Below, piece by piece: positions 5,025-53,635 of a DNA stretch of 64,000 bases. This DNA is from Candidatus Methanoperedenaceae archaeon (GTDB lineage: Archaea > Halobacteriota > Methanosarcinia > Methanosarcinales > Methanoperedenaceae). Under the pieces are notes generated by a model. That model was not told where the DNA came from. It saw only the letters and a list, made by a program, of their open reading frames with translations, and did no database searches. The position numbers and the translations under genes were made by a program. The stretch is taken from NCBI GenBank assembly GCA_963753595.1, contig CAVWCX010000023.1, forward strand, positions 64,001 through 128,000, in the 5' to 3' direction. Position 1 is the first letter of the stretch; every line of letters starts with the position of its first letter.

Positions 5025-5285
5025 CAGGCTGTGTGAAAAGTAATAAAAAATAACATTGAAATTGATAATTGTATTATTTATCACCCCATATCCCGGATTC
5101 CTTGATTGATTTTTTCAAGCTAGTTTTTTCAGCTATTCTTGCTAATTTGTTAGCTAGCAAATTGCTATTCAACCATAGTTTTGATATAGCAAATTATTAG
5201 CATTGATCCATTCAAAGGAATTGATGGTAAATTAAAACAGTTATTATTAAATCGAAATCAATTAAAAAATGATGAAAAAAATCTC

Positions 5286-5740: not shown

Positions 5741-5743
5741 AGT

Positions 5744-6496: not shown

Positions 6497-6540
6497 AATA
6501 AGCCTCGTAATAGCTAAGTATACGTGTTTAATTTTTTCTG

Positions 6541-6571
6541 TATATAAACACAGTTGTGAAAAGTGTGTGAA
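6541..6571 (-). promoter_or_regulatory. Promoter copy 4 upstream of the KaiC-like ATPase
   Basis: tatataaa-cacagtt-gtgaaaagtgtgtgaa has the same spacing as the MCP promoters, 45 bp from the start codon. Confidence 0.6.
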
Positions 6572-6660
6572 TTATCCTTAATAACCTGTACTATCAAAAC
6601 TATACTAAATATAATAACCCCCACTAAAATAATAACAAAAAAATATATACAAGGTGAAAA

Positions 6661-8862: not shown

Positions 8863-9750
8863 TAAAACTCCATTTTTCGCTCCATCTCCGTAAGTGCGCG
8901 TATGCGTGCTTCAACTGATGGATGTGTGGAAAAGAGATTCATAAAGGATTCACCTGAGATCGCAGGTATAATAAAGAATGCATTCATTGATTCAACTTCC
9001 CGCAGATCACGTGAAGGCACACGTTCCATGACGCCACTTATGGTCATAAGGGCGGATGCAAGGTGTGACGGCTGCCCTGTTATTATCGCCGAACCCCTGT
9101 CAGCAGCGAATTCCCTGTATCTTGAAAGTGCGCGGATAAGCAAAGAAACTCAGGATCCATACGATGATCGATACAATAAAAATGATCACACCCGCGCTGC
9201 CGTTTTTACGGTCATCCCTTCCACCCATTCCGAAAAACAGCATGTTCCTCACAAGTAAAGCTGCAACTGTGGACAGGAAACTTGCAATTGTGATAACAAG
9301 CATGTCACGGTTCTTTACATGGCTTAACTCATGGGCAAGAACTGCTTCAAGTTCAGGCTGGCTCAATCTTTGTTTCAGGGATGTGGTAACAGCCACAAGT
9401 GCGCTTTTCTTGCTTCGGCCTGTTGCAAAAGCATTCGGGACATTACTTTCAACAATAGCGATCTTTGGTTTAGGCAGATCAGCGATTGCACATAGCCTTG
9501 ATATAGTTTCATGAAGACCGGGCTCCTCCTGTTCGGTGACCACCCGTCCGCCGGTGCTCCAGAGTACCAGCTTGTCTGAATAGAAGAACTGGACAAACAG
9601 CATTATCATCATAAAAATAACCAGGATATTTGTCCATGCCCCGCCATAAGTCAATATCACTGCAAGAAAGACAAGATATAATCCGGCAAGCAGGAACATT
9701 GTCAATAACATGCGTGCTTGAAGCCCGTAATCACTGTACCATTTTTTCAT
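8862..9750 (-). CDS. htpX: Zinc metalloprotease HtpX (M48B), single frameshift near 9143
   Basis: PNAFATG and HELSH in ORF 9100..9750; SRYREFAAD and FSTHPS in ORF 8862..9143. Confidence 0.9.
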
Positions 9751-34190: not shown

Positions 34191-35100
34191 ATGGAAATAT
34201 TCTCAATTGTACTGGTTATCGTGGGTCTCATAATATTTGAGACCATCAGCAGTATAGACAATGCAGTAATTAATGCTGAAGTTCTTTCAACGATGTCCCA
34301 GCGGGCCAGGAAATGGTTCTTATTCTATGGATTGTTTTTTGCCGTTTTTGTAGTGAGGGGAATGCTTCCCTGGTTAATCGTATATGCGACAAATCCATCA
34401 CTGGGACCTGTCGGTGCGCTTACGGCTACCTTTAGTAATGATCCGGCGATCGCAAAGGTGATCGAAGAATCATCGCCTTTCCTGCTCGTCGGGGGAGGAA
34501 TTTTCCTCATTTTCCTGTTTTTCCACTGGCTTTTTATTGAAGCTAAGAACTACGGCCTTCGAGGCGAGACGGTTTTTCCATAAGCATGGAGTCTGGTTCT
34601 TTGCGGTTGTTTCCATAATTCTTACTGTAATTGTCTATTTCGCATTAAAAGAGCATCCATTTATGGCATTAGGCGCAGTTGTCGGATCAACGGCATTTTT
34701 TATAACCCACGGGTTTAAACAAAATGCTGAGCAGCAGGAAAAGGTGTTAATGGGCGGAGGGAAGATGAGTGACTGGAGCAAGATCCTGTACCTTGAAGTG
34801 ATAGATGCTACCTTCTCAATAGATGGCGTTGTTGGCGCTTTTGCGTTCACCCTTTCAGTCCCGCTTATCCTCATCGGTAACGGGATAGGAGCTTTTGTTG
34901 TCCGTGAGTTGACTTTAAAGAATATTGAAAACGTGAAGAGATACATCTACCTGAAAAACGGTGCGATGTACTCGATATTTTTCCTCGGGATCATAATGGT
35001 GCTTGACAGTTTCGGAGTTCACATACCAGAATGGGTCTCACCTGTTATTACAATAAGTGTGATAAGTTATTTCTTCTACAAGTCCAGAAAGTGCTTATAA
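34191..35100 (+). CDS. DUF475 / TerC-like membrane protein, frameshift near 34570
   Basis: FETISSIDNAVINA in the first ORF; YLEVIDATFSIDGV in the second ORF. Confidence 0.85.
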
Positions 35101-37961: not shown

Positions 37962-40463
37962 TTACTTTCTCTGCCTCAATACGAGATATGCTACTGCGAA
38001 CAATCCTGCGATTGCAGTTATTATCCCAAAGCCCGGCTCTGTTGGAGTGGTCGTTGCGACAGGTTTACCTTCCGTGCCTGTTGGTTTGACTTCTCCTGCT
38101 GTTACTGTCGGGACTACTGTGAGGGTTTTGGTCGGTGCTGCTGTTGCTTTAACAGTTCCAGTTGCTTTTGCGGTACCTGTTGCTGTAACATCTGTTGGTT
38201 CGCCGATCGTGTATTCTACATATGGATAGAATCTCAATGTATTGTTATCTGCAATTCTGAATTTCATATTTCCCATAAGGGTTGTTTCTGAATTCTTAGA
38301 TAAGCTTACAGTGTTCTCGTTATCCATCACGATATTTGGTGTGAGTGACCTTACTTTGAATACACCGTATTGATCATCTGACTTGATTTCTTTTGCAGTG
38401 GTTTCATCGATCAACCATGCATACTTGAATTGTACCATGTCTGAGGTAGCGCCTGAGAATATACTGCTTACATATACTGTGAACAATAATGCATCAGATT
38501 CTCCGAGAATGGTCTTCTTCTTGTAATATACAGCTTTTGATTTAGCTACGCCTGTATTCTCTGTTGGGGCCTGACCGATGCCTTCATCGACTACTGCTCC
38601 GTCTTTCTTCAGAGTGAACCATACCTGTCTTGGGGTTGTTCTTGCATCTATGGCGTTGATATTTAACTCATAGCCTGCGCCGAGTGCCCATGTTTCACCG
38701 GTTGTAAGGGTCTTCTTATCATCTTTACCCATCTCCAATGTCAATTTGGCGATCTTGTTGGTTACGCCTTTTACAGCTACCCATTTCTCAGCTTGCCAGC
38801 CAACAACACCATAAGTTGCATCCTGATCTACTTTTACAGGATCTGTAACAGTACCTGCGGCATTGAATGTTGATTCTTTCTCATAGACTTTGAACTCAAC
38901 TGGGGCCTGTCCTGTTGTGTATTTTAACTCGTTCTTAGCGATTGTTCTGCCTGTATAGGAAGAAACAGGATTAGTTAATTGCAGTGTTTCAGTGGTTCTA
39001 TCGTATTTGATGTCATAGTAAAATCCAGCCCAGTTATAGGAATCCCATTTTGGTGCTCCGACTGTGCTTTCCTGAACTACTGTTCCCCTGGTTTCATAGG
39101 TTCCAGCGGTTAAATGTTCTACAAATGGATAGAATCTAAGTGTATTGTTATCTGCAATACTGAATTTCATATTTCCCATAAGGGTTGTTTCTGAATTCTT
39201 GGATAAGCTTACAGTGTTCTCGTTATCCATCACGATCTTTGGTGTGAGTGATCTTACTTTGAATACACCGTATTGATCATCTGACTTGATTTCTTTTGCA
39301 GTGGTTTCATCGATCAACCATGCATACTTGAACTGTACCATGTCTGAGGTAGCGCCTGAGAATATACTGCTTACATATACTGTGAACAATAATGCATCAG
39401 ATTCTCCGAGAATGGTCTTCTTCTTGTAATATACAGCTTTTGATTTAGCTACGCCTGTATTCTCTGTTGGGGCCTGACCGATGCCTTCATCGATTACTGC
39501 TCCGTCTTTCTTCAGAGTGAACCATACCTGTCTTGGGGTTGTTCTTGCATCTATGGCGTTGATATTTAACTCATAGCCTGCGCCGAGTGCCCATGTTTCG
39601 CCGGTTGTAAGGGTCTTCTTATCATCTTTACCCATCTCCAATGTCAATTTGGCGATCTTGTTGGTTACGCCTTTTACAGCGATCCATTTCTCAGCTTGCC
39701 AGCCAACAACACCATAAGTTGCATCCTGATCTACTTTTACAGGATCTGTAACAGTACCTGCGGCATTGAATGTTGATTCTTTCTCATAGACTTTGAACTC
39801 AACTGGGGCCTGTCCTGTTTCGTAAACTAACTTGTTCTTCTGGATCAGTCTGTCAGCTTGAAGGTTCGCTGGAGAATCATCGGCTTTTATTGTCAACGTT
39901 TCAGTTGATCTGTCGTATTTGATGTCATAGTAGAATCCCTCAAAGTTCAGGGCATTCCATACGAATGGGCTTGCTGGAGACGCTCCATTTGAATAAATAT
40001 AGCTCCAGATTCTGGGCGCTGTTGCGCTTGCTGTACCGCCTACAGTTACAACGGAAGTTGCCACAACGCCAGTATTTGTATCTGCGTCGACAAATGTTCC
40101 GGTGAAGCTATAAGCGCCTGGTGCTGCTGCTGGTGCAGTTACTGTATAAGTAAATGCCGTTGCTCCAATTTTAGTAAAGTCTAGTACCTGGCCAGTCTGG
40201 ACTACATCCGTTGCGGTTGTTGAAACATATGTAAAGCCTGCTGGTAAAGTCTCAACTACACCGTAAAAGTCTCCTGTTGCTACTACTCCGCCTGGTGTCA
40301 ACGTTACTATTATCGTCGAACCATTGGCAGGAGTTGTTGTTGAAAATGATCTCGTTACTGATCCTGTGCTGACTGCTGCCATTGCTGGTGTTGCAATGAC
40401 ACTTAATATAATAGTCATCACAATGAAAAGTAATGAGATATTTTTTAATGATACTCTTTTCAT
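37962..40463 (-). CDS. Major S-layer protein: signal peptide, cohesin-like N-terminal domain, two DUF1608 repeats, Thr-rich linker, PGF-CTERM
   Basis: Duplicated GFYYDI...KKTLTTGETW...TLRFYP; C-terminal EPGFGIITAIAGLFAVAYLVLRQRK; GGAGG RBS and terminator. Confidence 0.9.
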   Translation of the reverse strand: MKRVSLKNISLLFIVMTIILSVIATPAMAAVSTGSVTRSFSTTTPANGSTIIVTLTPGGVVATGDFYGVVETLPAGFTYVSTTATDVVQTGQVLDFTKIGATAFTYTVTAPAAAPGAYSFTGTFVDADTNTGVVATSVVTVGGTASATAPRIWSYIYSNGASPASPFVWNALNFEGFYYDIKYDRSTETLTIKADDSPANLQADRLIQKNKLVYETGQAPVEFKVYEKESTFNAAGTVTDPVKVDQDATYGVVGWQAEKWIAVKGVTNKIAKLTLEMGKDDKKTLTTGETWALGAGYELNINAIDARTTPRQVWFTLKKDGAVIDEGIGQAPTENTGVAKSKAVYYKKKTILGESDALLFTVYVSSIFSGATSDMVQFKYAWLIDETTAKEIKSDDQYGVFKVRSLTPKIVMDNENTVSLSKNSETTLMGNMKFSIADNNTLRFYPFVEHLTAGTYETRGTVVQESTVGAPKWDSYNWAGFYYDIKYDRTTETLQLTNPVSSYTGRTIAKNELKYTTGQAPVEFKVYEKESTFNAAGTVTDPVKVDQDATYGVVGWQAEKWVAVKGVTNKIAKLTLEMGKDDKKTLTTGETWALGAGYELNINAIDARTTPRQVWFTLKKDGAVVDEGIGQAPTENTGVAKSKAVYYKKKTILGESDALLFTVYVSSIFSGATSDMVQFKYAWLIDETTAKEIKSDDQYGVFKVRSLTPNIVMDNENTVSLSKNSETTLMGNMKFRIADNNTLRFYPYVEYTIGEPTDVTATGTAKATGTVKATAAPTKTLTVVPTVTAGEVKPTGTEGKPVATTTPTEPGFGIITAIAGLFAVAYLVLRQRK
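38222..39819 (-). repeat. Near-identical ~695-bp internal duplication (38222-38916 vs 39125-39819, offset 903)
   Basis: Direct comparison shows only scattered substitutions. Confidence 0.9.
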
Positions 40464-40637
40464 TTTGTGCCTCCTTTAATTCATATATTTTTCATGAGAA
40501 GTAATTCACCCAAAAGTGATTCACCCCTCAGGATCTCAACGGATTACTAATATGTAATTCCGTTAACATTACCCAAATAGTAATTGCCTTCTTAAAGCTT
40601 TTGTGGTCGATTCGACAAAAAAACAAGCATACGTAGG

Positions 40638-40655
40638 CACAATTGACGAATTGTG
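40638..40655. promoter_or_regulatory. Palindrome CACAATT-GACG-AATTGTG upstream of the S-layer gene
   Basis: Perfect 7-bp inverted repeat in the S-layer upstream region. Confidence 0.35.
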
Positions 40656-40783
40656 ATTCACTTAATGTCGATGTTGGGTCGAGTATATTTTAAAAATTTT
40701 TTCAGAAGTATTGCCCTCTGAAATAAGTCCTTGCTATTTTTAGTGCATATTCTTTTGGTTGGCATGATGCGGCTTGCGGTACA

Positions 40784-43700
40784 TCATCTAAAACGTCTCA
40801 AAACAAATACGATCAATAATATGGCTAATGTATCCGCCAATGTAAGCATACTTGTGTTTTTATTCTCCGGGACTTTCAAACTCCCGCCCTCAATTATGAA
40901 CTCATGTGAAGATGGCAGGCCCCAATTGTCTTTCCTTTCCATGGCTTCAATATACACCATATGTTTACCGGATGATAATTTTGATAGATCAATCCGGGCA
41001 AATACTTCCTCTGCCTGGGAATCAAAAACCCCATCCACAGGATACATCCTGAATTTTTCAGGCTGCAAATCAATATAATACCTTGTATCTCTTACCTTCA
41101 TTTTATATCCGGCAGATGCAGATGCTTTCAATATTGTCCTGTTATCTTCTTTTACCAAAGATATTTTCTTAATTGCAGGCGTCACATGCAACCGCGAAAT
41201 TTCATGAATATTTGATACATGGCAGGATCCACACCTTTCAAACCTGTGTTCCTCGTCACCTATGTAAACTGCGCCGTAATTATTCCCGGTTGCGGCATGG
41301 CAGCTTACGCAGGTCCTCGGGGTTTTGTAACCGGAAGGATGCGCAGTGATATTTTTCGTTCCCCCGTGGCATGCGCGGCAGGCATTGTTGCCCCCGCCAT
41401 CTATTGCATCATGCTTTCCAAGGGCTAGTATTTTTTTCACTGAAAAACCATCCTTCCCATGACATGAAAGACAATTAGCTCCACCGTTGCTGCCATCGAA
41501 TAGCTGGAGGGAATGGAAATTTTCAGGGATACTCCCAACATTAATAGTGGAATTTTCCCATAACCAGCTTGCATTATAACCCGCAAGTGTCTGGTTTTCC
41601 ATTATTTTCCTGATTTCAGGAGATATGCCGGCTACCTCATCGAGAATTACCATATTCTTTGGTTTTGCCTGGATTATTCCCGAAACCTTTGCCCTGAAAA
41701 TAGTAATATTCTTTGGCTGGTTCCCAAGATAATTTATGCTCGGGGTAAATTCAAATATGCCCCCCCGATTCACGAGATCCTCGTAAAAATAATCGCCGGT
41801 ACGCAACTGGAGGAAAGCCACTTCGTCTTTGGTATCCACTCCTTTAACTACAAGGCTTGTTCCATCCGAAATATTCCAGGTTTCTCCTTCAAACAGTGAC
41901 CTGCGTTTTTCCGGCTGGATGGTCACATGCAGGTCTTTATCTGTAAGAGCCCCTAATAATTGAAGAACAACAGTTTCATCGAAGATTTCATTATCGGTAA
42001 AATTGACAATTTCTTTCGTGTAATATATTTCATCTTTCTCACCGCTGACCCTTTCGATGACTTTATACTTTGCTTTTGGCATTGCTTTCACATGGCATGA
42101 ATAGCATGCTGTGGTTTTTTTCTCAGGATGGACTCTTTTTAACCTGAAACCTTCGTACTGGATAAAGCCAGTATCATTTCCTTTGAAAATGCCTGTGATA
42201 TTCATTACAATTACAGGCACTTTTTCACTTCCGTTGTCGATAGTGAGGTATTCCTCATATGTATAATTTCCAATACTTACAAGGCTCTTATCTACAGGGA
42301 TATTTTCTTTTATAAGTTCTATCAGCACGCTGTTTCTGACGAATGAGACTTCAAGTACTTTGAGGTTAAAACCGAAACCAAAGTCCACAGATTCCCCCTC
42401 CATGGCGGTGAATTTGTTATTTTCCCTGTTGAGTTCTACAAGTGCCGTCCTGTTCTCGTATATCAACGTAGCATTGCCCCACTTCCTGGAGTTGTCCTCG
42501 TTAATATGGCAGTAAATGCAATTGATACTGTCAAACAGATCGCCTGAGGCAAAATGGGATACGGTTGAATTTATGTTCCTGCCCTGTGAATTTACGCTGT
42601 TTACATGGCATTCCTGGCAGTCATTACTGGTTGTTACGTTGTAATTGACAACATTATTCGGATTGTCGATCATGCTTGCGTTCCTGAAATGTGAATATAT
42701 CATAGGAGCGCGGAATTTCTGGCCCAGGGAATGGCACTCATCATTGCTGCACTTTTTCGGTGATTTATATCCTGCTGGATGTCCCGAGGGCTTTGTCCCA
42801 TTGCCATGACAGGCCCAGCATGATGAACTTCCGCCACCATTGAGGCCATAATGCACGCTTTTATTGAATGCATCCATGTCTATTCTCTTATCGGGAGGTG
42901 CGCCGCCACCCCTGCTGCCATGGCATGAGATGCAATCAGGCCCGCCTCCGCCCGTTCCGACATTATGAATAAATAAAGCGGTTGTTGCAGGTGAATTTAC
43001 TCCATGGCAGGCCTTACATGCCGCATCTGAATATTCACCCAGGGAGTGGTTATAGAAAGCAGTTCCATCACTTGCTTTTTCGGGAACAAGCCCTGAATTG
43101 TCCTGTATTTCAGGCGGTACCGGATAATATGAGTCACCATTATAGGAATAATTTCCTGCCGGAACACCACCTTTATAATGACAGTTGGCACACCAGTATG
43201 ATGTATTTGTTATATTCTGGTTGGGTAAATTTCCAGATCGTATGTTTTCCACTTTTCCAAGCGCATTCAAATTGTGTAGAGCCTGTACATGGCAATATTC
43301 GCATGAACTGCTGGTATTGCCCCAGTACTCTGGTTGAGAACCGTTCCACAAGGTGCCAGAGTTGGGATTCACGCTATGGTTCATTGGCGGCAAGATCCAT
43401 GCTTCAGGGAACATTCTTAGCCCGCTGCCCTGATGGCAGGTCGTGCAATTTGCAGCAGGAAACGGCAGTCTGAATTTAACGCCACCCGTAAAGTTATGGC
43501 AGCTTGTACATCCGGTAACATTAATGGCGCGGTAGCTTCCGTCAGGCTGGATATATCTTATATTATGAATATCTGAAGGTGTTGCTGTATGACATCTTAT
43601 GCATTCAACCTTTCCGGAATGTTTGTTTTTCGGTATCCGATCATTTGAGTGACAGTTATTACAGAAACCAGATGATGGCACGGGTTTTACAATATTTTCC

Positions 43701-44339
43701 CCATGCAGTTTATCCTGCCCATGACAACTTGTGCAGTCGGGGGGAAAACCTGCAGGATGAAATGGATAGATAGAAGAAGCAGTATGGTTACTTATTCTCG
43801 TGTTATCCGGGTTTTGCATAACATCCTTATAAATGGTAGAAGAATTTTGATGGCAGAAAGTGCAATATGTTTTTCCTGGCGGTATGCCAAAACTGGAGTT
43901 CCTTCCGTAATGGGCTGCGCTTGCACTGGCGCTGAACCTGAAGAGATTTGATGTCTTGTTATGGCAATCAACGCAATCTGCGGTTACAGACAAGGGCAGC
44001 GTTCCTGTTGTGATTAGATACTCTCGGAGCAGACGGGACAATTCCGTCAACATGGCAATTCTCGCAGGTATATGTTGATACCGGAAATATTGATACAGGT
44101 ATCCGATGCGGCCCGGAGGTATTGACCGAATAATGGCACGCCATACAATCAAGGCTTGTGAGAATTCCTGCTCCATCTGCTGAATTTACATTGACATGAA
44201 CTCCGATTAGAGAAGTGTCAATAGCGGGGAATGAACCAATATCAGTCTGATGACATGCCATGCAATCAAGCACTGCACTTCCCGCGTATGCTGATGAAAG
44301 ATAAAACAATAATGATAGTAAGAACAGAATTTTTTTCAT
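40784..44339 (-). CDS. Multiheme cytochrome c / S-layer fusion protein (22 CxxCH + 1 CX4CH), C-terminal TM anchor; frameshift near 43995
   Basis: Signal peptide and 3 CxxCH in ORF 43968..44339; 19 CxxCH in ORF 40784..44176; DUF1608-like segments EGESVDFGFGFNLKV and EGETWNISDG. Confidence 0.85.
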
Positions 44340-44575
44340 ATTAAATACTCACGGATTTCCTGGGACATAATGAACTTCTCATTATTATTATGATATTGTC
44401 AATATTGATATATTAATCTTAGTGTTCTGAAATTGTTAAAATTCAGGATAACAATTCAGATTATATCAATCACTAATAATATTCTTCAGGAATTAAAGCC
44501 ATTACTTAAGTCGTCTTGTTTAGCATAAATAAAAAATTGGGAGATTTTATCTCCCCCATATTATGTTTGAAAGTT

Positions 44576-44890
44576 TCAGACATTCTTGCCAAATTTTTCT
44601 ATCCAGGAAAAATGCCCGCCTGGTGTTATTATTTTATTTCCACCATCTGTCTTGATTACTATTGCTTTTTCAGGAATTGCACTATCTGGATATAATTGAC
44701 CCTGGCATTCGGCATTTAGGTTACCGCCGCTTGTCAAAACTAACTTGTAATCTCCCGACCCGGTGTAGTGCATGCCATCTACCCATTCATTCAGGCTACA
44801 TGTTCCTGAATCGTGGGTTGCTGGCTCTGCAAGTGCAGCCGGAACCAATAAAGACGTTACGATCAGTAACGCAATTGTTTTTCCAATCAT
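44576..44890 (-). CDS. Small secreted hypothetical protein (2 Cys)
   Basis: Signal peptide ending ALA; GGAGGTGA RBS; downstream hairpin GGGAGAT/ATCTCCC. Confidence 0.7.
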   Translation of the reverse strand: MIGKTIALLIVTSLLVPAALAEPATHDSGTCSLNEWVDGMHYTGSGDYKLVLTSGGNLNAECQGQLYPDSAIPEKAIVIKTDGGNKIITPGGHFSWIEKFGKNV

Positions 44891-45113
44891 TGTTTCACCT
44901 CCCTTGAAATTTGATATTTATTGAGCGCCCACCTGATGCATACTGTTCCTAAAGCAGTTCTTCTGTTTTTGACTCCCGTTTTTCCCAATAATAAAATGCT
45001 TTTACTATATAAATACTTAATCAGCGTTAAAAAAATCTTTAAAATATCCCTTAAAAAAAAATAAAGTTGTTGATATTCCTATTGGAATACCAACTTAAAT
45101 TTTGTTTCTTTGT

Positions 45114-45242
45114 CTAACCGCGTAAGTATGCCCTAACTACTGCTATAGCATCTGCCTTGGAAATTCCACCGCCAGTTAAGTAGTTTCGGACTGCTGCCAC
45201 AGCTTCTGTCTTCGAGAAAGTTCCATTGTGGTCTGTGTCCCA
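45114..45242 (-). repeat. Dockerin-like tag copy 1
   Basis: WDTDHNGTFSKTEAVAAVRNYLTGGGISKADAIAVVRAYLRG. Confidence 0.85.
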
Positions 45243-47842
45243 ATACTGAAATGTCTCCAGGTGGCACTGTACCTCCGCCCGCGCCAACAGAAGCATTCAC
45301 TTCGTTAGCTAGCGTTAGTGAATCATCCAGTAGTTGATCTACTTTTGTTGGATTGTGTACGCCCCAGCTTTCGTCGGAATACACCAATCTGACATTCCAG
45401 TATGCCTGAGCGATCTTAACTTTAGCCGCGCTCTTTTCACCTGTATAGGCGTTATAATTCGCCAATGCAGACATAACCGATCCGTTAGTGGAATTCCACT
45501 TCGCCTGGGTATCAGACTTTATGGTTTCGATAACCTCAGGGATAGTTCCTACTACCGATCCTGCCTCATGGCAGCCTTTGCATGCTGTGAGGGTCTGAAG
45601 ACCAGTGGCATTAACTTTGAAACTATGTCCTTTTGTCTTCTGGCTATCATCAAGTATAGATCCTGATGCATCGGTTGTGTTTATATACATGTGACAATCA
45701 ATGCACTCGAATTTCATAATACTTGACTCTTTCCATGAACCAACAAAAATATCCTTTGCCGGGAAACCATGTGGCGCTTATTGGAGTAGTAGATGTGGCA
45801 GTTGCCCATCCAGGCCCTTCGCTGCCTATTCTGACATTCGAATGGCAGTTTCCGCACAACTCTACGGTATTTGGCATCATGGTATAGTTAGCTTTGTATC
45901 TGGTTACAGCGCCTGTTGTCGAATTCGTGGCCGCAACGAGTGCATCCCTGTTATACCATGCATAGTATTTTGCCGTTCCGAACGCCGCTTTGGTCTTTGC
46001 GAGCCAGTCACCCATGTCATGAAGATTATGACACACGTCACATGTAATACCCTTGAAGTTATCAGGGGTCAGTGGAACTGTAGCGGTGTTTGCAGTGCCA
46101 TTGCTGTAATAGTCAGTCAATGGGTTCCAGTTGAACGGGGAGTGGCATTTATTACAAGAGTTTGCTCTTGATTTTGTAGTGACTACACCAGTCGTTCCGT
46201 TGATGCTCCTATAGTAACTACTATTAGGATTTTTGCTTACCCCAACTTCCACGTCATTATGTGCGCTTGCCTTCCATTCTCTTATCACAGGGATAATTGA
46301 ATATTTGCTTTTACTCAGGTTTTGAGCGCTTGTGGTATGGCACCCTGAAGCTTTTCCGCATGAGTTGTTGCCCAATGCATTAAGATCATGTTTCTTCATA
46401 ACGATCCTCTCAGTGCTGCCTGCCTTTTCCATGTGGCAATCTATGCATGCTGCTGCAGCATCTTTGCCGTAATAGTAAGTACCATGCGACAGATTAACTG
46501 CTCCGATATGGCCAAGCCCGTGTCTGAAATGGCACTTTGAGCACAATATTGTTGATACGTCAGTACCTGGAATAGATATTCCTGCAGTACCATAGCTTGT
46601 ATCTTTTCTGTCAGATACTGTGCCAGGATATAACAGGGCAGGGAAACTGAGTTTATCGAAAATAGCCGAACCCGCTTCGAGTGAAGCAGTTGCATTGAAG
46701 AAAGCCAGCTTCGCTACTTTTATATTCGCTGCTGTTGCTGTATTGTAACCGCCTGGTGAATATAATGCTGCATACTGGTCATCAGTCATATCATGGACAT
46801 TGTGACAGACACCACACGCCACATTGGTAGCACTCTCTTCCGTTATAATATTGTTTTTATATTTATCAAATGGCGAATGGCATTGTGTGCAGCCGCTTGG
46901 TGTTTCCGCGGTCGGTGGTGCATGAGCGCCCTTTTCCCAATTAGTTGCATGGGATCCGGTTCCTGTAATATGGCATTCCTGGCACAGGCCGGCGGAGTAG
47001 TTTACAACTACCTGATGTCCATTGCCTGCAGGTTTATGACATCTCTCACATCCGATACCTGGTTCTGCGAAGGTTCCGTTTATGCCTGGTAACTTGCCAT
47101 TCAGGAGGCTTGCACTCCAGGTGCTGTTATCCCAGCCAGTAGTATGGCATTTTCCACAGGTGCCGTATGCGCCGCCAGCATGACTGCTGCTTTCAAATTC
47201 CTGGGTTGTACTATTATATTCATCATTCGCAGCAAGGAAATATCCATTTACGTCAATATAGTTCAGTACCGGCTTTGAAACTATAACATAGGATATGCCT
47301 GCCCAGCCAACACCTGGTGCTGGAAGACCCATCGCCTGGGCAGTAGTTCCTGGTGTCAACATGACGCGATGCATTGTGTTAGTCCAGTTATTGTATTTTG
47401 CACTGTGACAATCTTTGCATACTGAAGAATTCAGGTATGTTGGAGTGCCCGAAAGCAAATTGAAATTGTTTCCAGGCGCATTCACATGGCAGTTCGCGCA
47501 TCCGCCAGCTGGTAACATTTTTGCTGCCAGCGTGGTTGCACTATATCTGTGATTTGTATTATATGACGAACCAGTGGCTGTAAGCGGAAGAAATGCGCTC
47601 AGATCAGTATGGCAAGTTAAACAGCTTGATCCGTTTGATGGAACTGAAATTCCATTAAATTTATGAACATCCTTGAAATAGCTACCATCGGTTGTCAATG
47701 TATAATCGCTACTTACAATACTTACATGACAGTAGCCGCAATCTGCTCCCGCAGACCCATATCCTTGTTTCGCGCTTCCTGTACCTGCCAGCGCCAGCAG
47801 TAATATCAAAATTCCTATACCTAATATAATTTCTTTTCTCAT
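45114..47842 (-). CDS. Secreted multiheme cytochrome c (16 CxxCH + 1 CX5CH) with a c552/NrfA-like helical end and C-terminal dockerin-like tag; frameshifts near 45775 and 45260
   Basis: ORFs 45698..47842, 45133..45717 and 45114..45296 join into one frame by removing one base at each junction; DESWGVHNP motif. Confidence 0.85.
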
Positions 47843-48138
47843 ATTTCGATTCTCCTCCTTACCTAAAGTCTTCGTTTTTTATCATAATTCATGACAATAA
47901 AATTTTAGATTAAGCCCCATTTTTAATAATTATCCCTCTTTTCCTCGTCATTTTGACCGCCTTTAGAATTAGCGATAACAAAATACATTTTAAAATATAT
48001 TTTTTGCTTCAATATTCCATATCCTCCTTCTAATTAATAATACCATGATTATAAATTTTATAACTTACGTATAAAACTTATATCAAATAATTATGGTTAT
48101 GATGATATAAATAACTTTTGCTGATAAAATCCATGTGT

Positions 48139-49547
48139 GGTGGTTACCAAGACCCCCTTGAAACCATTGGTAGATTTTTTTTCACCTCCTATGTGAGATA
48201 TGCAACCGAAGAGAGATTTTCTTTTATACCATGCTGCAATCGTGCAAATGCTACTGCCAGCATGGCAATACAGCATTCTGTCACGTGAAGATCAATATTC
48301 TTCATACCTTTGCCATTCAAATGTGCCTCAACTTCAAGGTGATCTTTCAGATAGCTATTGATTCCTTCATTGCTGTTTCTTCTATGGTAAAGATCAAGAA
48401 CAGTATCGGGACACTCATCATATTTATTCATATAGTCATTTCTAAAATACATGGCAACAGGGTCATGAAATCCCTTTTTGACAAGAAATTGCATTTTATA
48501 TTCAAGAGAAGCATCTTTCTTATATTTTGAATCTTGCCAATTTTTTCTATAGAGATAATTAATCTCCTGTTCAGGGGAGTAGATATAGGTTTTTCCATTA
48601 AACCTATGCTCGTATTTTACATTTTCTCTCCAATCCTTGTCAATATGATAATGTGACATCAAACCCATTTCAACATGAGCAAATGCAATGTTTTTGTTGC
48701 TGTTATAACCGCCATCGAACCAAGTCTCTTCCATGTTCATCCCGGCAGATACTGCTGTCTTTCGGAGCATATCTTCAAGATATTTATCATCATCTTCAGT
48801 TCCACCGCATACCTTTTTGGCCAGGGGAATATTGTGCTCATAATCCATGGTTATTTGTGCTTTGACCATCTTTTTCTTATAATGGCCATTGTATTTTCCA
48901 TCAGGATCGTTATGTGTCTTGATTGGAGTACTATCTGTTCCAGTGCATTTTCCAATTTTTAAATCCAATCGGTTACCAGCTTCTACAACCTTTATACAAA
49001 AAAGTTGCATTATAGAATCCATCCCCTTATTACCCAGTCTCACTTTTTCGAAATGCCTCAAAGTTTCATGATCTGGAACTATGATATTTTCATCCGGATC
49101 AATATTGAAACCCAATTCTAGTGCCTCATCAGGATGTGTTCTTAAGTTTCTTTCCTCTTTCGTATAATATTTTATTGTCTTTATGTTTCTCCAGATAAAT
49201 GCCTTTACCATTGCCCTTCTTGGATACGTTTCCACTCCTTCTTTAACGGTATAATGTTTGTTGATTTCAGGCATTATCGGATCAAGGTTTAATCCTTCCA
49301 GAAATTTTGATGCCCGAACGCTGTTCTCGGAGGTTGCATCTGCAAACTCTTCATTATTTGCATCGGTCAGACCGATGAATTTGTTCCAATAGCTTTTTAT
49401 TTGCTTATCAACATTAAACTCCATTGTTCATCCCCTCTTTGGAATTTTGTGATTAAAATAATAATGGGGGGATGAATAATATAAATCTTACTGCAAGTAT
49501 AAAAAATAGTTAAATTTATAAGGCAAACCTATGAATTGGTAACCACC
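48139..49547 (-). mobile_element. Intact-looking insertion sequence (1409 bp) with 12-bp TIRs and a 6-bp target-site duplication
   Basis: GGTGGTTACCAA (48139-48150) / TTGGTAACCACC (49536-49547); ATGTGT flanks both ends. Confidence 0.9.
48189..49424 (-). CDS. DDE transposase (IS4/IS5 clan)
   Basis: DSTPI, FDGGY and YHRRNSNEGINSYLK (YREK-like) motifs. Confidence 0.85.
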   Translation of the reverse strand: MEFNVDKQIKSYWNKFIGLTDANNEEFADATSENSVRASKFLEGLNLDPIMPEINKHYTVKEGVETYPRRAMVKAFIWRNIKTIKYYTKEERNLRTHPDEALELGFNIDPDENIIVPDHETLRHFEKVRLGNKGMDSIMQLFCIKVVEAGNRLDLKIGKCTGTDSTPIKTHNDPDGKYNGHYKKKMVKAQITMDYEHNIPLAKKVCGGTEDDDKYLEDMLRKTAVSAGMNMEETWFDGGYNSNKNIAFAHVEMGLMSHYHIDKDWRENVKYEHRFNGKTYIYSPEQEINYLYRKNWQDSKYKKDASLEYKMQFLVKKGFHDPVAMYFRNDYMNKYDECPDTVLDLYHRRNSNEGINSYLKDHLEVEAHLNGKGMKNIDLHVTECCIAMLAVAFARLQHGIKENLSSVAYLT

Positions 49548-49713
49548 ATGTGTAGAATCCTGTAAAATACGAAGTCACTACATCAATAGCTTGTCGCCAG
49601 GTTAATGTTCCACGCAGGTAGCCAGTAGCTCCCCTTATTGCTTTTTCCCATCTATCCTGCCACCCAGTATCAAAAAAAAAAGAAGTAATTATATTTCAAC
49701 TTTTTGTTTCAGG

Positions 49714-49839
49714 TTATTTGAAGTATGCTCTAACAACTGCTATAGCATCTGCCTTGGAAATTCCACCGCCAGTTAAGTAGGCTCGGATTGCCGCCACAGC
49801 TTCAGTCTTTGAGATAATACCGTTCTTGTCTTTATCCCA
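49714..49839 (-). repeat. Dockerin-like tag copy 2
   Basis: WDKDKNGIISKTEAVAAIRAYLTGGGISKADAIAVVRAYFK. Confidence 0.85.
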
Positions 49840-52782
49840 GAATGCAACCTGGGACGATAATGTACCTGGTTCTGTCACAATAACCGTTGTTGTTCCGCTT
49901 GTGTAGCCTGTCAGGGTTGCAGTTACATTTATTGCGCCTTTGCTGGTAGCGTTCACTCCGGTTATGTTTACTAAACCATTAGTAGTTGTGCCGCTTTTGC
50001 TGACACCTGCCCCGCTAAGTGTAATTAAAACACCGCCAAGTGCCGGAGTGACAGTGAAGACTATATTAGTTGGAGTGCCTGCTGTTACTGTACCGGGTAT
50101 TGCGGATACTGCCAGTGTTCCATTATCCTCTGCCGCTACAGGTGATTTTAATGCGAAATCATCCACGATAAACGCAGTCAAATAACCGCTATCTGTTGTA
50201 GCGCTTAACTTTAACCGGACCGTCTGCCCTTTGAATTCTGATACATTATATTGTGCGCTTATCCTGTAGCCATAACTCCTGTTAAGATTACTCAGGTTCG
50301 CAAATGTTTTTAATAAAGTATTATCCGAAGGACTCCTTATTTCAAGTCCCATATTATCATAAGCAATATCAGTAGATACTTCATTTGTCTGGATCCAATA
50401 CCAGAATTGGAGATACACATTTGCTGCACTTGAGGGAATTGTTACATCCTGGTAAATATAATCATTGGCGTTGTCATACCCCCCCAGGTATGCAAACCTG
50501 CTTCCACTACGAGAATATGCCGAATTATTATTTATCCGGGGATTTCCATTGCTGCCATACTGTGTCCATCCGGTATTCCCGCCCTCAAAACCAGGATTGG
50601 CCAATACGCCTAAATTTTCTGATGGCGCAGGGAACATATTGCAGTAATTGGAATAAATCCCATGATTTGCATAAAATGCTGTGCAGATTTCAAAGATATG
50701 CGGCGTACCATCTCTCAGGTTCGCATTGTTATCATCTGCGACTAATACGTCTTCAAGGTATTCTGTAAAATTAAAGGGTTCAAGTTTCATTGCGTTAATA
50801 ATAAGTTCATCTGATGTTTTATTTCCCAACATCTCCCTTAGATCCCACGCAGCGCCTGATACTATACTGCTGTCATCGTGAACCTCGCCAACAATATCAT
50901 CCGGATATTTTTTTGTATTGTGGATATCCCTCAGGCAAACACCAAGAAAGCCTTCTCCAAAGCATGAATTGTCATTTACCGAACTTGTAAAATAATCTGC
51001 CCACCCTTCATCCAATGCACCGCTTTCATCGCGATAAGGCAGATTTGTTGTATAAATATGATCGACTACGCTATGGGTGTATTCGTGGTTGATAATATCG
51101 CCAAATAACGATGCTGCCTCGCAGCCACTACCGGCTCCATAGAAATAGAGATCTTTGCCATCGGAAAGTGCATTGCAGGTGCCAGGATACTGAACGTATG
51201 CCGTCGTCTGGTAGTTCATGGCATAAATATCAAATGGATATCCTTTTGTAAAGAAGTCATGCATTGCATTTATGTGATAGAATACATTTGACTGCTCTTT
51301 TTTATAAGATGTATCGTAATCATTCCAATCCCAGTTGTGAACAGATGGTGTTGTAATTGAAACCTGGTGATTAGCATCATTCCCGCTATAATTAAATACT
51401 CTTACATTCGGACCCTCAAGCGCTGAGGACAGGATAAAGCTGCCCGGAAGTCCCGAAATACTGTAGTTCCCATCTGCACCGGTCGTACCTATTGTCGTAT
51501 AAATTGGCACAATTTGTTGATTTATAGAAAAATTGTAGTTATCCCAATATCCAAAGTTGTCAGCATTATCTACAAAAACCACTCCATTGTTGGTTATAAC
51601 CTTTATTTCGTCTATATACCACCCATCATATGCTATGTAAGAATCAGTAGTATATTGAAATTCTATCCATATAGTATGTCCTATATAATCAGACAGGTCA
51701 AGGTTTATTGTTTTCCATGTACTGGAGTTGCCTGTAAACGATTTGATCCCATAATAATTAGTTCCATCTGTAGATATATATACAAATCCTTTATCATAGT
51801 TGGTCTCCATAGAATAATTTGCCCTGAATTGAAGAGTTGCAGAGGAAACACCGGCAAGATTAATGGGATTTTTGAGATACAACCGATTATCCAAATTGTC
51901 ACCTTTTCCTGACCAGAATACATTACTGGAAGAACTTCCATAATTATAGAGGTTCTCTGCCCCTGATCCTTTCACTACCATAGTCTGTGGGTTTTCCGGA
52001 TACATTGGCACTGTAACTCTTCCGCTTAACGTGTTGGATACGATCTTGTTGTATTTCTCAAGAATTTCACCGTTATTGGCATCAACGATATATACCCACT
52101 TTGCAGGAGGATTTTCGATAAGTCCGGGTTCTACCTTGTAAGCGAGGCGATATTCAACAACTTCACCTGTGTATCTGGGAAATACAAGAAGTGAAATTCC
52201 TTCAACATTTGTTTTTATCTCTTTTGCTGCGTTATTCTTATTTGCAGATTTTTGGATATTCTGGTTATTGATGTGTATTGGTTTTTGGAGCACAGCCTTT
52301 GTTTCCAGGGGAACTCCCAGATCATTCTCTACGATCCCTGTTGCATCTGATTCACTTAATACTGGTTTTGTGCTGATATCTATTTTAGGGCGGTGGGTAG
52401 ATTTCAGAGTCACTATCTTTTCATCTTTGACCCCTACTATTACACTACTTGAATAAACAGGCAGTCCATTATAGGTCTGGGTATATTTTAATATTGATAA
52501 TGACCCTTTTTTTGTATCGTTGTAAGAAGAAGACAGAACCAGATCATCTGGATTTATTTTATATCTTGAACCAAGTGCGGAACGGATTTTTGAATCCATA
52601 TCGTTGCGGGAAATGGAATTTTCGCTATCAAGGTCGAAAACTTCTCTTGTGATCATCTTTTTCTCATCTGGATGAATATTATTTCCAGGGTCAATACCGT
52701 CGTTAATATTTTTCCCAGGAACTGCGGAAGAATATCCCGCCAGCAACGCAAGAATTAACAAAACAAATATATATAGTCTCAT
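49714..52782 (-). CDS. Secreted M4/M36-type zinc metalloprotease with FTP/PepSY propeptide, two jelly-roll modules, an Ig-like domain and a C-terminal dockerin-like tag
   Basis: YTQTYNGLPV (FTP), YIVDANNGEIL (PepSY), HEYTH, GALDEGWAD and GEVHDDS. Confidence 0.85.
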   Translation of the reverse strand: MRLYIFVLLILALLAGYSSAVPGKNINDGIDPGNNIHPDEKKMITREVFDLDSENSISRNDMDSKIRSALGSRYKINPDDLVLSSSYNDTKKGSLSILKYTQTYNGLPVYSSSVIVGVKDEKIVTLKSTHRPKIDISTKPVLSESDATGIVENDLGVPLETKAVLQKPIHINNQNIQKSANKNNAAKEIKTNVEGISLLVFPRYTGEVVEYRLAYKVEPGLIENPPAKWVYIVDANNGEILEKYNKIVSNTLSGRVTVPMYPENPQTMVVKGSGAENLYNYGSSSSNVFWSGKGDNLDNRLYLKNPINLAGVSSATLQFRANYSMETNYDKGFVYISTDGTNYYGIKSFTGNSSTWKTINLDLSDYIGHTIWIEFQYTTDSYIAYDGWYIDEIKVITNNGVVFVDNADNFGYWDNYNFSINQQIVPIYTTIGTTGADGNYSISGLPGSFILSSALEGPNVRVFNYSGNDANHQVSITTPSVHNWDWNDYDTSYKKEQSNVFYHINAMHDFFTKGYPFDIYAMNYQTTAYVQYPGTCNALSDGKDLYFYGAGSGCEAASLFGDIINHEYTHSVVDHIYTTNLPYRDESGALDEGWADYFTSSVNDNSCFGEGFLGVCLRDIHNTKKYPDDIVGEVHDDSSIVSGAAWDLREMLGNKTSDELIINAMKLEPFNFTEYLEDVLVADDNNANLRDGTPHIFEICTAFYANHGIYSNYCNMFPAPSENLGVLANPGFEGGNTGWTQYGSNGNPRINNNSAYSRSGSRFAYLGGYDNANDYIYQDVTIPSSAANVYLQFWYWIQTNEVSTDIAYDNMGLEIRSPSDNTLLKTFANLSNLNRSYGYRISAQYNVSEFKGQTVRLKLSATTDSGYLTAFIVDDFALKSPVAAEDNGTLAVSAIPGTVTAGTPTNIVFTVTPALGGVLITLSGAGVSKSGTTTNGLVNITGVNATSKGAINVTATLTGYTSGTTTVIVTEPGTLSSQVAFWDKDKNGIISKTEAVAAIRAYLTGGGISKADAIAVVRAYFK

Positions 52783-52792
52783 TTTTTTCTCC

Positions 52793-53179
52793 TTATGTTC
52801 TGAATAATTGTTCTTTCTTGATCACTTCATTCCCCTGTTCATCGTAATAATAATCCCATGCCAGGCCTTCCCCTATTCTGACCTTCCATACTGTTTTTCC
52901 TTCCAGGGTTGCTGTTTCAATGTTCTTTATGCTTTCTTCTGTTACATTATAAGTGATCGGTCTTCCTGCAATATCATGGTAAACAATAGATGTTCCAATC
53001 AGGTTGTTTTTAATCTTTTCTTTTATGGCATCGCTGCCAACAGGTTCAGGAATTGTATATGTATTATTATTGGAATTGGCAGGCTTCTCCACGCAACCCG
53101 AAATGAATAATATAGAAAATACAATAATTGTTATTATCATAATCAGCCCAAAGACATTCATCCTTTTTTTTTGTAACAT
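52793..53179 (-). CDS. Small lipoprotein, possibly PepSY-like
   Basis: Lipobox ISGC; VWKV...YYYDEQGNEVI; 10 bp upstream of the protease gene. Confidence 0.65.
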   Translation of the reverse strand: MLQKKRMNVFGLIMIITIIVFSILFISGCVEKPANSNNNTYTIPEPVGSDAIKEKIKNNLIGTSIVYHDIAGRPITYNVTEESIKNIETATLEGKTVWKVRIGEGLAWDYYYDEQGNEVIKKEQLFRT

Positions 53180-53299
53180 TTTTTCACCTGAAACAGCAAC
53201 GACTGGAATTTAATTAGAGTAAAGACCCTATTTTAAGTATTCTTTGATACTATTTAATTATTTCGATACAAAAAATATTGTGTAGAGTCCTGAAATTGT

Positions 53300-53428
53300 C
53301 TAACCGGTTAAGTATGCCCTAACTACTGCTACAGCGTCTGCCTTGGAAATTCCACCGCCAGTTAAGTAGGCTCGGACTGCTGCTACAGCTTCTGCCTTCG
53401 AGATAGTTCCACTGTGGTCAGCGTCCCA
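53300..53428 (-). repeat. Dockerin-like tag copy 3
   Basis: WDADHSGTISKAEAVAAVRAYLTGGGISKADAVAVVRAYLTG. Confidence 0.85.
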
Positions 53429-53635
53429 TACTGCAACTTCAGGCGACAATTCAGTAGGTGTATAAGTAAAAGTGCTTGTACTGCCAGATGTAATAATGTA
53501 AGTGCCGCCAGGGGTCAATGTATCCACAATTGGTGTCTGGTCAATAGTCACAGCAGATGTAATCTGAAATGATATGATCAGGACCGTTAAAATGGTGAAT
53601 AAAATCTTAATGGACATAGCATTTATTATTTTCAT
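53300..53635 (-). CDS. Small secreted protein consisting of little more than the dockerin-like tag
   Basis: Signal peptide, ~40-aa Thr-rich segment, then the tag. Confidence 0.7.
   Translation of the reverse strand: MKIINAMSIKILFTILTVLIISFQITSAVTIDQTPIVDTLTPGGTYIITSGSTSTFTYTPTELSPEVAVWDADHSGTISKAEAVAAVRAYLTGGGISKADAVAVVRAYLTG

Follow-up and report, generated by a model that had tools for sequence, protein, structure and literature searches.

A C-terminal single-loop EF-hand tag on secreted proteins of a Methanoperedenaceae archaeon: a candidate Ca-dependent docking module

Described docking and anchoring systems

Canonical type I and type II dockerins, known from the cellulosome, from Archaeoglobus fulgidus and from ANME-1, ANME-2a and ANME-2c, are C-terminal Ca-binding helical modules of secreted proteins whose partner is a cohesin, a domain with a nine-stranded beta-sandwich (jelly-roll) fold. 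According to the available part of Duarte et al. 2025 (PMC12270676), these canonical modules have two Ca loops. The same text describes the group-2 dockerins of Ruminococcus flavefaciens (RfDoc2), which are natural single-loop modules of ~45 residues with a loop-helix-loop-helix layout, lie at the ends of varied cargos and bind cohesin. Two RfDoc2 copies pack antiparallel and thereby mimic a full dockerin. One position in these modules is referred to there as a cohesin-recognition position.

The dockerin-cohesin proteins of ANME listed by Chadwick 2022 and Timmers 2017 share with the locus described here, as far as the available parts of both sources go, the idea of a cargo clipped to an S-layer-associated receptor. 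An earlier note on this DNA knew of no description of such a system for ANME cytochromes. However, dockerin/cohesin had already been put forward for 'MHC adhesion' in the available part of Timmers 2017 (PMC5244752), and dockerin/cohesin display in ANME, including adhesion of haem proteins, is therefore not new as an idea. PGF-CTERM (archaeosortase) anchoring occupies the same C-terminal slot as the tag reported below. Unlike it, the tag has no hydrophobic helix and any attachment through it would be non-covalent.

The tag and its carriers in the window

The stretch analysed (64,000 nucleotides, hereafter the window) includes exactly three sites that combine an EF-hand loop, two helices and a G-G-G-I-S linker, all on the minus strand, as identified by a six-frame motif scan. 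The same three tags came out of a profile search that covered all 694 stop-to-stop frames (E 6e-36 to 3e-33; Table 1). They are ~45-50 residues long and their cargos are an M4-like protease, a 111-aa mini-protein and a 16-haem cytochrome. The three copies share 73% protein identity (30 of 51 columns invariant) and a mean DNA column identity of 86%, with a likeness that reaches silent positions in the second half. This similarity is far beyond chance, and the module was recently copied from gene to gene in the source genome.

Table 1. Coordinates of the features discussed (positions within the window)
Feature	Position	Strand	Description
S-layer protein, 833 aa	37962..40463	-	N-terminal domain, two S-layer (DUF1608-type) domains, PGF-CTERM
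N-terminal domain of S-layer protein (proposed socket)	40014..40382	-	Residues about 28-150; one DUF11-type copy
Multihaem cytochrome with internal S-layer domains	40784..44339	-	C-terminal hydrophobic helix; split gene
Multihaem cytochrome, 16 CxxCH	45117..47842	-	Assembled in three frames
Tag copy 3	45117..45260	-	Frame differs from cytochrome body: one extra T at about 45242-45259
DDE transposase (insertion-sequence gene)	48189..49424	-	Pfam DDE_Tnp_1, DUF772; between protease and cytochrome
M4-like metalloprotease, secreted, 1022 aa	49714..52782	-	FTP, PepSY, InhA-like MAM, Peptidase_M4_C (Pfam); in-frame tag
Tag copy 2	49717..49866	-	C-terminus of protease; motif scan and profile search
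128-aa protein	52793..53179	-	Hydrophobic N-terminus ending in Cys, lipoprotein-like
Mini-protein, 111 aa	53300..53635	-	Hydrophobic N-terminus, about 35 beta-rich residues, then in-frame tag
Tag copy 1	53303..53452	-	C-terminal 50 residues of mini-protein; one EF-hand Ca loop and two duplicated helices

The earlier note had placed the same tag at the ends of three secreted proteins. This stands for the protease and the mini-protein, and in part for the cytochrome, whose tag is out of frame. The N-terminus of the protease is hydrophobic, and a homologue (P0002) is named from Ca. Methanoperedens. The mini-protein has relatives of like build (P0007, 105 aa; P0011, 123 aa; P0028, 101 aa). Neither the protease nor the mini-protein has a Pfam PGF-CTERM match. 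The neighboring 128-aa protein shows no significant Pfam or NCBIfam match, and a search for terminal inverted repeats around the transposase gave none that was convincing.

The tagged cytochrome carries 16 CxxCH motifs, in agreement with the ~16-17 haems first estimated. Its pieces lie at 45698-47842 (714 aa, 14 CxxCH), at 45133-45717 (194 aa, 2 CxxCH) and, for the tag, at 45117-45260; the second shift consists of a single T that the other two tags lack. The neighboring cytochrome with internal S-layer domains is also split: the part at 43968-44339 encodes a signal peptide and 3 haems, and the part at 40784-44176 encodes 19 CxxCH and one CxxxxCH. Since the window includes at least five frameshifts (in the M48 peptidase, the DUF475/TerC gene, the S-layer-domain cytochrome and twice in the tagged cytochrome), assembly error is the likely source of the frame breaks in the tagged cytochrome. 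Two relatives, P0238 (875 aa, 16 CxxCH) and P0008, show its architecture in a single frame. Across the homologous family of 78 proteins the C-terminal slot varies, with a beta-rich module in 39 members, a helical module in 8, an FG-GAP-like end in 3, a PGF-like hydrophobic anchor in 1 and the tag in 1. The anchor, in P0253, is a PGF-plus-hydrophobic tail recognized by eye, for which Pfam gives no confirmation at E<=0.01.

The adjacent S-layer protein has the features of Methanosarcinales S-layer proteins (PF07752/TIGR01567, two duplication domains and PGF-CTERM), with Pfam matches to S-layer (3.3e-111) and PGF-CTERM (1.2e-6, residues 810-830) and matches to TIGR01567 and TIGR04126. As noted earlier, it carries an extra N-terminal domain.

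The tag family compared with dockerins and EF-hands

In the tag, a single canonical EF-hand Ca loop precedes two helices that are duplicates of one another. The loop consensus is D-x-[DN]-x-[DNS]-G-x-I-x-K-x-E. Among 97 domains, position 1 is D in all 97, position 3 is D/N in 96 and position 5 is D/N/S in 96, while G at position 6 is present in 87, I at position 8 in 86 and E at position 12, a residue typical of classical EF-hands at this position, in 95. The tag thus has the ligands (1, 3, 5 and 12), the Gly 6 and the hydrophobic residue 8 of an EF-hand loop. No second Ca loop was found in these 97 domains, the linker between the helices being limited to 3-5 residues. The residue patterns of both helices are in register, each with a conserved K/R (92/97 and 90/97) at the position to which PMC12270676 assigns cohesin recognition. 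An AF2 model of a 57-aa construct, built from a 30-row alignment (pLDDT 88.3), has helices at residues 11-14, 26-38 and 44-56, and a three-helix fold is predicted.

The earlier note had taken a Ca loop with a duplicated helix for the dockerin architecture. Both elements are present, but the canonical arrangement has two tandem duplicated segments, each with its own loop, where the tag has one loop. The tag was rejected as a canonical dockerin on this ground and on the absence of any dockerin in the PDB searches and of a match to Dockerin_1 (PF00404), the Pfam profile that canonical dockerins fit. Searched with Pfam Dockerin_1, the three tags gave no match at E<=10, although HMMER filters might hide very weak matches, and Dockerin_1 is absent from the 25 families listed for 30 members of the tag family. 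PDB sequence searches with the tag returned EF-hand proteins such as calmodulin and lanmodulin (best matches E 4.5e-4 to 2.6e-3) and no dockerin. Foldseek with the pLDDT-88 model, a weak method for helical domains of 50 residues, gave 11 weak matches at E<=10 (best 2.8), of which 5 were EF-hand and none dockerin. A language-model (Atlas) lead to Dockerin_1 scored 0.84, under the 0.9 line of the tool. Pfam EF-hand profiles (PF00036/PF13405) give the window tags 13-19 bits, below their gathering threshold of ~25-25.4; at E<=10, EF-hand_1 matches 20 of 30 members of the family, the best with E 1.3e-5. The tag shares the 12-residue canonical loop with EF-hand proteins (calmodulin, lanmodulin, bacterial members). 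However, it has one loop per module instead of a pair, its second half is a loop-less duplicate helix, and it is extracellular and C-terminal.

The closest layout is that of the group-2 dockerins. Judged against their description in the available part of PMC12270676, the tag has the same build (~45 residues, one Ca loop, helix, loop, helix, terminal position on varied cargos) and a basic residue at the cohesin-recognition loop position. It differs from them in the prevalence of Glu at position 12, in a second helix that duplicates the first, in its archaeal host and in its cargos, which are redox proteins and proteases and not CAZymes. Neither Pfam, nor PDB sequence searches, nor Foldseek with the tag model matched it to a group-2 or any other dockerin.

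The tag family is widespread and has no Pfam or NCBIfam model. At E<=1e-3 the tag matches 335 cluster representatives, a count that takes in cross-hits to multi-EF-hand proteins; the full-length tag is present in 76 of the 151 proteins among the matches listed. Of 95 tagged proteins, 72 carry the tag within 12 residues of the C-terminus. Among the cargos are S8, M6 and M4 proteases, NosD/beta-helix proteins, Big_1/Big_2 adhesin-like proteins, a cupredoxin-S-layer protein and cytochromes. Low-complexity linkers join the tag to these very different folds, and it stands nearly alone in the mini-proteins and in two entries of 50-51 aa (P0121 and P0135). In P0042, an S-layer-domain protein, the tag takes the place of the PGF-CTERM of the S-layer protein in the window. 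By a crude heuristic, and with many entries possibly being fragments, an N-terminal hydrophobic run is seen in only 43 of 90 tagged proteins starting with M.

Possible role and partners of the tag

We propose, with a probability of about one half, that the tag is a portable Ca-dependent docking or retention module for secreted proteins. It would bind Ca2+ and dock to another protein in the manner of the group-2 single-repeat dockerins, of which it is perhaps distant kin, and this docking would keep the tagged cargo at the cell surface. Secreted proteins without an anchor would thereby be given an extracellular address. The N-terminal domain of the S-layer protein is only one of several candidate receptors, next to a second tag and a true cohesin whose gene would lie elsewhere in the genome. 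The terminal position on many unrelated secreted cargos, the layout known from the available description of group-2 dockerins and the swappable C-terminus of the cytochromes agree in spirit with the docking module of the earlier note, whereas its identification as a dockerin found no match in Pfam, the PDB or Foldseek (the last being weak for domains of this size).

Among specific partners, the first to be considered is the tag itself. On the premise that a lone EF-hand requires a second one to pair with, two tags may dimerize in a Ca-dependent way, either by themselves or next to each other on a receptor, and cross-link secreted proteins. The residue at position 8 of an EF loop bridges paired EF loops, and in the tag it is mostly Ile, as given above. 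Two or more tags in tandem occur in 11 of the 95 tagged proteins. The mini-protein would then serve as a cap or adaptor, and mini-proteins of this kind, devoid of cargo, are conserved. The antiparallel packing of RfDoc2 copies, as reported in the available part of PMC12270676, points the same way. However, a single tag is already modelled as a compact unit with high confidence, and most tagged proteins (84/95) carry only one tag. Mutual pairing is possible but unlikely.

The proposal that the N-terminal domain of the S-layer protein is a cohesin-like socket, into which every tag plugs in a Ca-dependent way, is improbable. The S-layer gene and the tagged genes lie in one gene run, the domain is found only once in the window (profile search of the 694 frames) and it is retained in the S-layer orthologues P0209 and P0190. 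In 30 of 310 proteins a DUF11-like module and the tag are joined in one chain: 18 come from the 81 proteins found with the N-terminal domain, and 12 from the 76 tagged proteins among the 151 matches listed. In 10 of these 30 the module ends 3-11 residues ahead of the tag, a fusion of a type that can indicate interacting domains. Their union in one chain is suggestive but is not evidence of binding. The domain is a promiscuous repeat present in 1-6 copies in many surface proteins, and co-occurrence may reflect only a common toolkit of extracellular modules. Moreover, a DUF11-like module is absent from 64 of the 76 tagged proteins among the matches listed, tags are found just as well behind Big_2, Big_12, fn3 and other beta modules, and a receptor fused beside its own ligand would tend to self-occupy.

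The sequence of the domain also argues against a cohesin. Pfam Cohesin (PF00963) does not match it, its three PDB sequence matches are all unrelated, and the Atlas leads include no cohesin. Its only Pfam match at E<=10 is to DUF11 (PF01345; E 0.027, with 15.2 bits against a cutoff of 24.6). However, its 82 homologues (1-6 copies each) score as DUF11/BatD, full-length repeats reaching 77.6 bits in P0130 (1.2e-21), 43.9 in P0155, 36.8 in P0180 and 27.4 in P0163. Judged by these relatives, it is a DUF11-type, Ig-like repeat module. It aligns to the DUF11/BatD repeats (PF01345, PF13584) over its whole length, differing in being a single copy placed in front of S-layer domains. The cohesin suggested by the earlier note is therefore not supported. 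The fuller version, in which Methanoperedens-type archaea use a minimal single-loop dockerin analogue to clip multihaem cytochromes and proteases without anchors reversibly and in a Ca-dependent way onto this DUF11-type domain as a non-cohesin socket, giving an exchangeable extracellular electron-transfer coat, also appears improbable to us.

We likewise give little weight to a further reading, in which the tag, as a divergent dockerin, pairs with a true cohesin whose gene lies outside the window. In the available part of the S4 Data of Chadwick 2022, two proteins of Ca. M. nitroreducens are entered as bearing a cohesin, and the group-2 layout and the weak Atlas lead to Dockerin_1 are consistent with such a divergence. 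However, neither PF02335 nor PF14522 (cytochrome Pfams) nor PF07504 (FTP) occurs in the available S4 text. The missing Dockerin_1 match and the PDB and Foldseek results free of dockerins also count against it, and the 64-kb window contains no cohesin.

Finally, a lone EF-hand could merely stabilize its cargo after secretion, which is a point against docking, and the canonical Ca loop and the many S8, M6 and M4 protease cargos, enzymes that are often Ca-stabilized, would suit a folding element locking the C-terminus once in the Ca-rich outside; but this non-docking role is improbable given the low-complexity linkers to very different folds, the near-solitary tags of the mini-proteins, P0121 and P0135, the surface K/R conserved in both helices and the position of the tag in a slot where one cytochrome relative has an apparent membrane anchor.

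The docking module we favor is thus a plausible role for a well-founded module family, and not a demonstrated plug-and-socket system. The tag would define a family unmodelled by Pfam and NCBIfam and spread over many secreted proteins. A natural half-dockerin whose receptor is not a cohesin, if that is what the module turns out to be, would extend the range of dockerin-like systems known so far. For Methanoperedens-type methanotrophs, the question touched is how soluble multihaem cytochromes are kept at the surface for extracellular electron transfer, and a small, portable Ca-dependent address tag that stand-alone mini-proteins have in common with a cytochrome and a protease would make this surface retention testable.

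Shared C-terminal module in a run of secreted-protein genes

Three secreted proteins encoded in the window, a multihaem cytochrome, an M4-like metalloprotease and a mini-protein, carry the same C-terminal tag of about 45-50 residues. The Ca loop, the glycine linker and the two helices occur together at exactly three sites in a six-frame motif scan of the window, and when its 694 stop-to-stop frames were all searched with a profile, the same three emerged and nothing else. The shared tag claimed in the earlier note is real, and its overall observation proved largely right. The three copies have 73% protein identity (30 of 51 columns invariant) and a mean DNA column identity of 86%. Their second half is nearly identical at the DNA level, silent positions included, which argues for a recent copying of the tag between genes, and the cargos of these near-identical stretches are unrelated to one another. 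The comparison indicates that the tag was probably shuffled as a module within the genome, or homogenised by gene conversion, in recent times. The names given at source to the homologues indicate Candidatus Methanoperedens.

Coordinates of the gene run, the tag-coding stretches and the frameshift regions (positions in the window)
Feature	Position	Strand	Remarks
S-layer protein, 833 aa	37962-40463	minus	S-layer domains and PGF-CTERM (Pfam, NCBIfam)
Multihaem cytochrome	40784-44176, N-terminus split off at 43968-44339	minus	internal S-layer domains, C-terminal hydrophobic helix
104-aa ORF	44576-44890	minus	
Second multihaem cytochrome (tag-bearing)	45117-47842	minus	cytochrome families (Pfam, NCBIfam)
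DDE transposase	48189-49424	minus	Pfam/NCBIfam; between tagged cytochrome and tagged protease
M4-like metalloprotease	49714-52782	minus	FTP, PepSY, InhA-like MAM, Peptidase_M4_C
128-aa lipoprotein-like ORF	52793-53179	minus	between protease and mini-protein
Mini-protein, 111 aa	53300-53635	minus	
Tag-coding stretches	45104-45274; 49704-49874; 53290-53460	minus	compared at DNA level
Frameshift regions	8862-9750; 34191-35100; 43968-44339 with 40784-44176; 45117-47842		otherwise ordinary genes split

A look for terminal inverted repeats around the DDE transposase gave no clear pair. The 128-aa ORF has no family match in Pfam or NCBIfam; that it serves the protease, say as its inhibitor or as a propeptide-like partner, is a guess only. 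The left of the window (989-7842) holds chemotaxis genes, for CheW and for an MCP with HAMP, together with genes for a KaiC-like ATPase and the archaellum accessory proteins FlaC and FlaD/E.

The tagged cytochrome had been described as a single protein of about 16-17 haems ending in the tag. Its 14 + 2 CxxCH motifs and its tag are present but, as assembled, the tag is out of frame with the body. The body itself is divided between one frame of 714 aa (14 CxxCH) and another of 194 aa (2 CxxCH), and the tag occupies a third. A tblastn search with the relative P0008 as query placed the second frame shift at about 45242-45259, where DNA alignment with the other two tags reveals one extra T. The relative P0238 (875 aa, 16 CxxCH) exhibits an identical architecture, tag included, in a single frame. 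At least five frameshifts occur in the window, affecting an M48 peptidase, a DUF475/TerC protein, the S-layer-domain cytochrome and, twice, the tagged cytochrome. The S-layer-domain cytochrome is split into a signal peptide with 3 haems in one frame and 19 CxxCH with one CxxxxCH in another. The genes broken in this way are otherwise ordinary, and the pattern suggests assembly indels as a likelier cause than gene decay.

Family and predicted fold of the tag

The only Pfam matches of the tags of the window are to EF-hand models and sub-threshold (13-19 bits, threshold about 25); Dockerin_1 went unmatched at E<=10, and NCBIfam returned no match. A profile of the three tags was searched against 1.84 billion cluster representatives and retrieved 335 proteins at E<=1e-3, many of which are multi-EF-hand proteins reached via the loop alone. 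The whole module was recovered in 72 of the 151 matches listed with this three-row profile and in 76 of the 151 with the family profile. Scanning the contig collection with the three-row alignment gave a lone locus, in the TPR protein of a high-GC bacterium, which was rejected as a chance resemblance.

The loop is canonical across 97 domains from 89 proteins: D stands at position 1 (97/97), D/N at position 3 (96/97), D/N/S at position 5 (96/97), G at position 6 (87/97), I at position 8 (86/97) and E at position 12 (95/97). In these domains the linker to the second helix comprises only 3-5 residues, and the tag therefore has no second Ca loop. Both helices follow the same pattern in register, with a conserved K/R in 92/97 and 90/97. 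An AlphaFold2 model built from a 30-row alignment (tag pLDDT 88.3) shows a short helix leading into the loop, followed by two more at residues 26-38 and 44-56. The single-sequence model of the mini-protein reached a pLDDT of 61; its Foldseek matches are meaningless and were discarded.

The comparison with dockerin structures proposed in the earlier note did not find a dockerin: the Foldseek search of the tag model against the PDB, a method of low power for helical domains of 50 residues, gave 11 matches at E<=10 (best 2.8), of which five belong to EF-hand proteins (two CDPK Ca-binding domains, sorcin, centrin and calpain) and none a dockerin. The top ranks of the PDB sequence searches went to calmodulin, lanmodulin and an 'EF-hand domain-containing protein', with no dockerin among the best 60 of 242 matches, nor among all 11 of a second search. 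At E<=10, 20 of 30 members of the tag family matched EF-hand_1 and 19 EF-hand_6, and Dockerin_1 is absent among the 25 families listed for them. An Atlas search, which provides leads only, ranked unnamed clusters first (0.92) and included Dockerin_1 as a weak lead (0.84). We consider that the tag is, judged by its sequence, an EF-hand-type module and not a canonical dockerin, the latter identity being rejected on account of the one loop and the missing profile match. Although it does not qualify for the canonical family, its layout closely matches the architecture of the half-dockerin, the single-repeat (group-2) form of Ruminococcus flavefaciens (PMC12270676). By analogy the tag may work like a half-dockerin. 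Thus, of the dockerin reading, a portable, putatively Ca-binding terminal module with a half-dockerin-like layout stands, while membership in the canonical family does not.

Parts of the literature already link such domains to these archaea. Dockerin and cohesin domains have been counted in ANME genomes (Timmers et al. 2017, PMC5244752), and proteins combining S-layer and dockerin domains are described in ANME-2c in the text of Chadwick et al. (2022, PMC9012536). For Ca. M. nitroreducens, parts 73-74 of supplement 4 (S4 Data) of that paper give three proteins, two with cohesins. The text available from S4 Data contains no occurrence of PF02335 or PF14522 (cytochrome), PF07504 (FTP) or PF01345 (DUF11), and cytochromes with recognised dockerins are therefore not listed in it. 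A Lake Cadagno study devotes one sentence of its available text to 'dockerin-like domain proteins' in Methanoperedens MAGs (PMC12246660). S-layer-domain cytochromes are discussed in the available text of Ouboter et al. (2024, PMC10874420), which has no occurrence of 'dockerin' or 'anchor'. The portions of the literature searched yielded no published description of a single-EF-hand tag on Methanoperedens cytochromes.

The N-terminal domain of the S-layer protein as a proposed partner

The PGF-CTERM-bearing S-layer protein does carry a real extra N-terminal domain (residues 28-150), as had been claimed. A search restricted to this N-domain gathered 82 proteins, most of them with 3-6 tandem copies of the same module, and the alignment with the homologous modules is good over the whole length. 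Homologous copies score as Pfam DUF11/BatD: in P0130 at 1.2e-21, over four stretches coinciding with the repeats, and above threshold also in P0155, P0180 and P0163. The copy of the window itself stays below threshold (DUF11 E 0.027). The domain has no match to Cohesin, no sequence relative of it was found in the PDB, and its Atlas leads include no cohesin (the top lead, at 0.86, is unnamed and DUF11 clusters appear lower down). Family membership assigned on sequence grounds indicates that the N-domain is a DUF11-type surface repeat and not a cohesin, a reading rejected on this ground. The proposal of a cohesin-like socket is thus unsupported.

The two S-layer domains of the same 833-aa protein have a reported DNA identity of 97% over 300 nt (38214-38513 versus 39117-39416, spacing 903 nt), a sign of gene conversion, of a collapse in the assembly or of an internal duplication of very recent date. 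A second S-layer paralogue (9936-12185, 749 aa) combines two S-layer domains with a C-terminal SdrD_B/SpaA-like domain and is devoid of a DUF11-type N-domain. SdrD_B modules are also present in some relatives of the tagged cytochrome, for example P0240.

The stronger model of the earlier note, in which tagged cytochromes are clipped to the N-domain of the S-layer, finds its best argument in fusions of the two modules, which can mark interacting domains. Among 310 collected proteins, 95 have the tag, 94 a DUF11-like module of the N-domain kind and 30 both. The tag starts 3-11 residues after the module in 10 of these 30, and one further domain of about 100 residues (Big_12 by Pfam in the two proteins scanned, P0035 and P0220) lies between them in 16. 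In the single chain of P0042, the N-domain is combined with an S-layer domain, a cupredoxin and the tag. However, the DUF11-type repeat is promiscuous, and Big_2, Big_12, fn3 and other modules likewise precede the tag. Of the 81 proteins that the N-domain search contributed, 18 are tagged; of the 151 from the tag search, 76 are tagged, and the N-domain module occurs in 12 of these 76 and is absent from the other 64. Moreover, the counts are uncorrected for taxonomy, and shared taxonomy could explain the enrichment. Clipping of tagged cytochromes to the N-domain appears unlikely.

A C-terminal cassette consisting of a DUF11-like module followed by the tag, either after 3-11 residues or after the intervening domain, recurs in P0075, P0096, P0131, P0134, P0142, P0147, P0210, P0215, P0221, P0232 and 16 others. 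It is borne by S8 proteases, LRR proteins, M6 peptidases and others.

Position of the tag and the C-terminal slot of the cytochromes

The tag lies at most 12 residues from the C-terminus in 72 of the 95 tagged proteins, and 11 of the 95 have two or more copies. Its cargos are unrelated and include S8, M6 and M4 proteases, NosD/beta-helix proteins, Big_1/Big_2/invasin-like proteins, the cupredoxin-S-layer-domain protein P0042, a cytochrome c552-like fragment and mini-proteins like that of the window.

The family of the tagged cytochrome (45698-47842) comprises 78 homologues (P0233-P0310), many of them named from Ca. Methanoperedens. Their C-terminal slot is variable: it is occupied by a beta-rich module in 39, a helical module in 8, an FG-GAP-like stretch in 3, a PGF-plus-hydrophobic tail in one (assigned by eye) and the tag in one (P0238), the remaining 26 being other or truncated. 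The PGF-type anchor of that single relative was without Pfam confirmation at E<=0.01. Pfam scans of two examples (P0250 and P0240) matched neither the beta-rich nor the helical 'YRRLG...EW' module to a model. The helical module was also considered as a loop-less relative of the tag and rejected, the hhalign comparison (P 0.054) not being significant. We infer that a terminal swappable slot, common to the tag and to what reads as an anchor, fits an address or attachment module.
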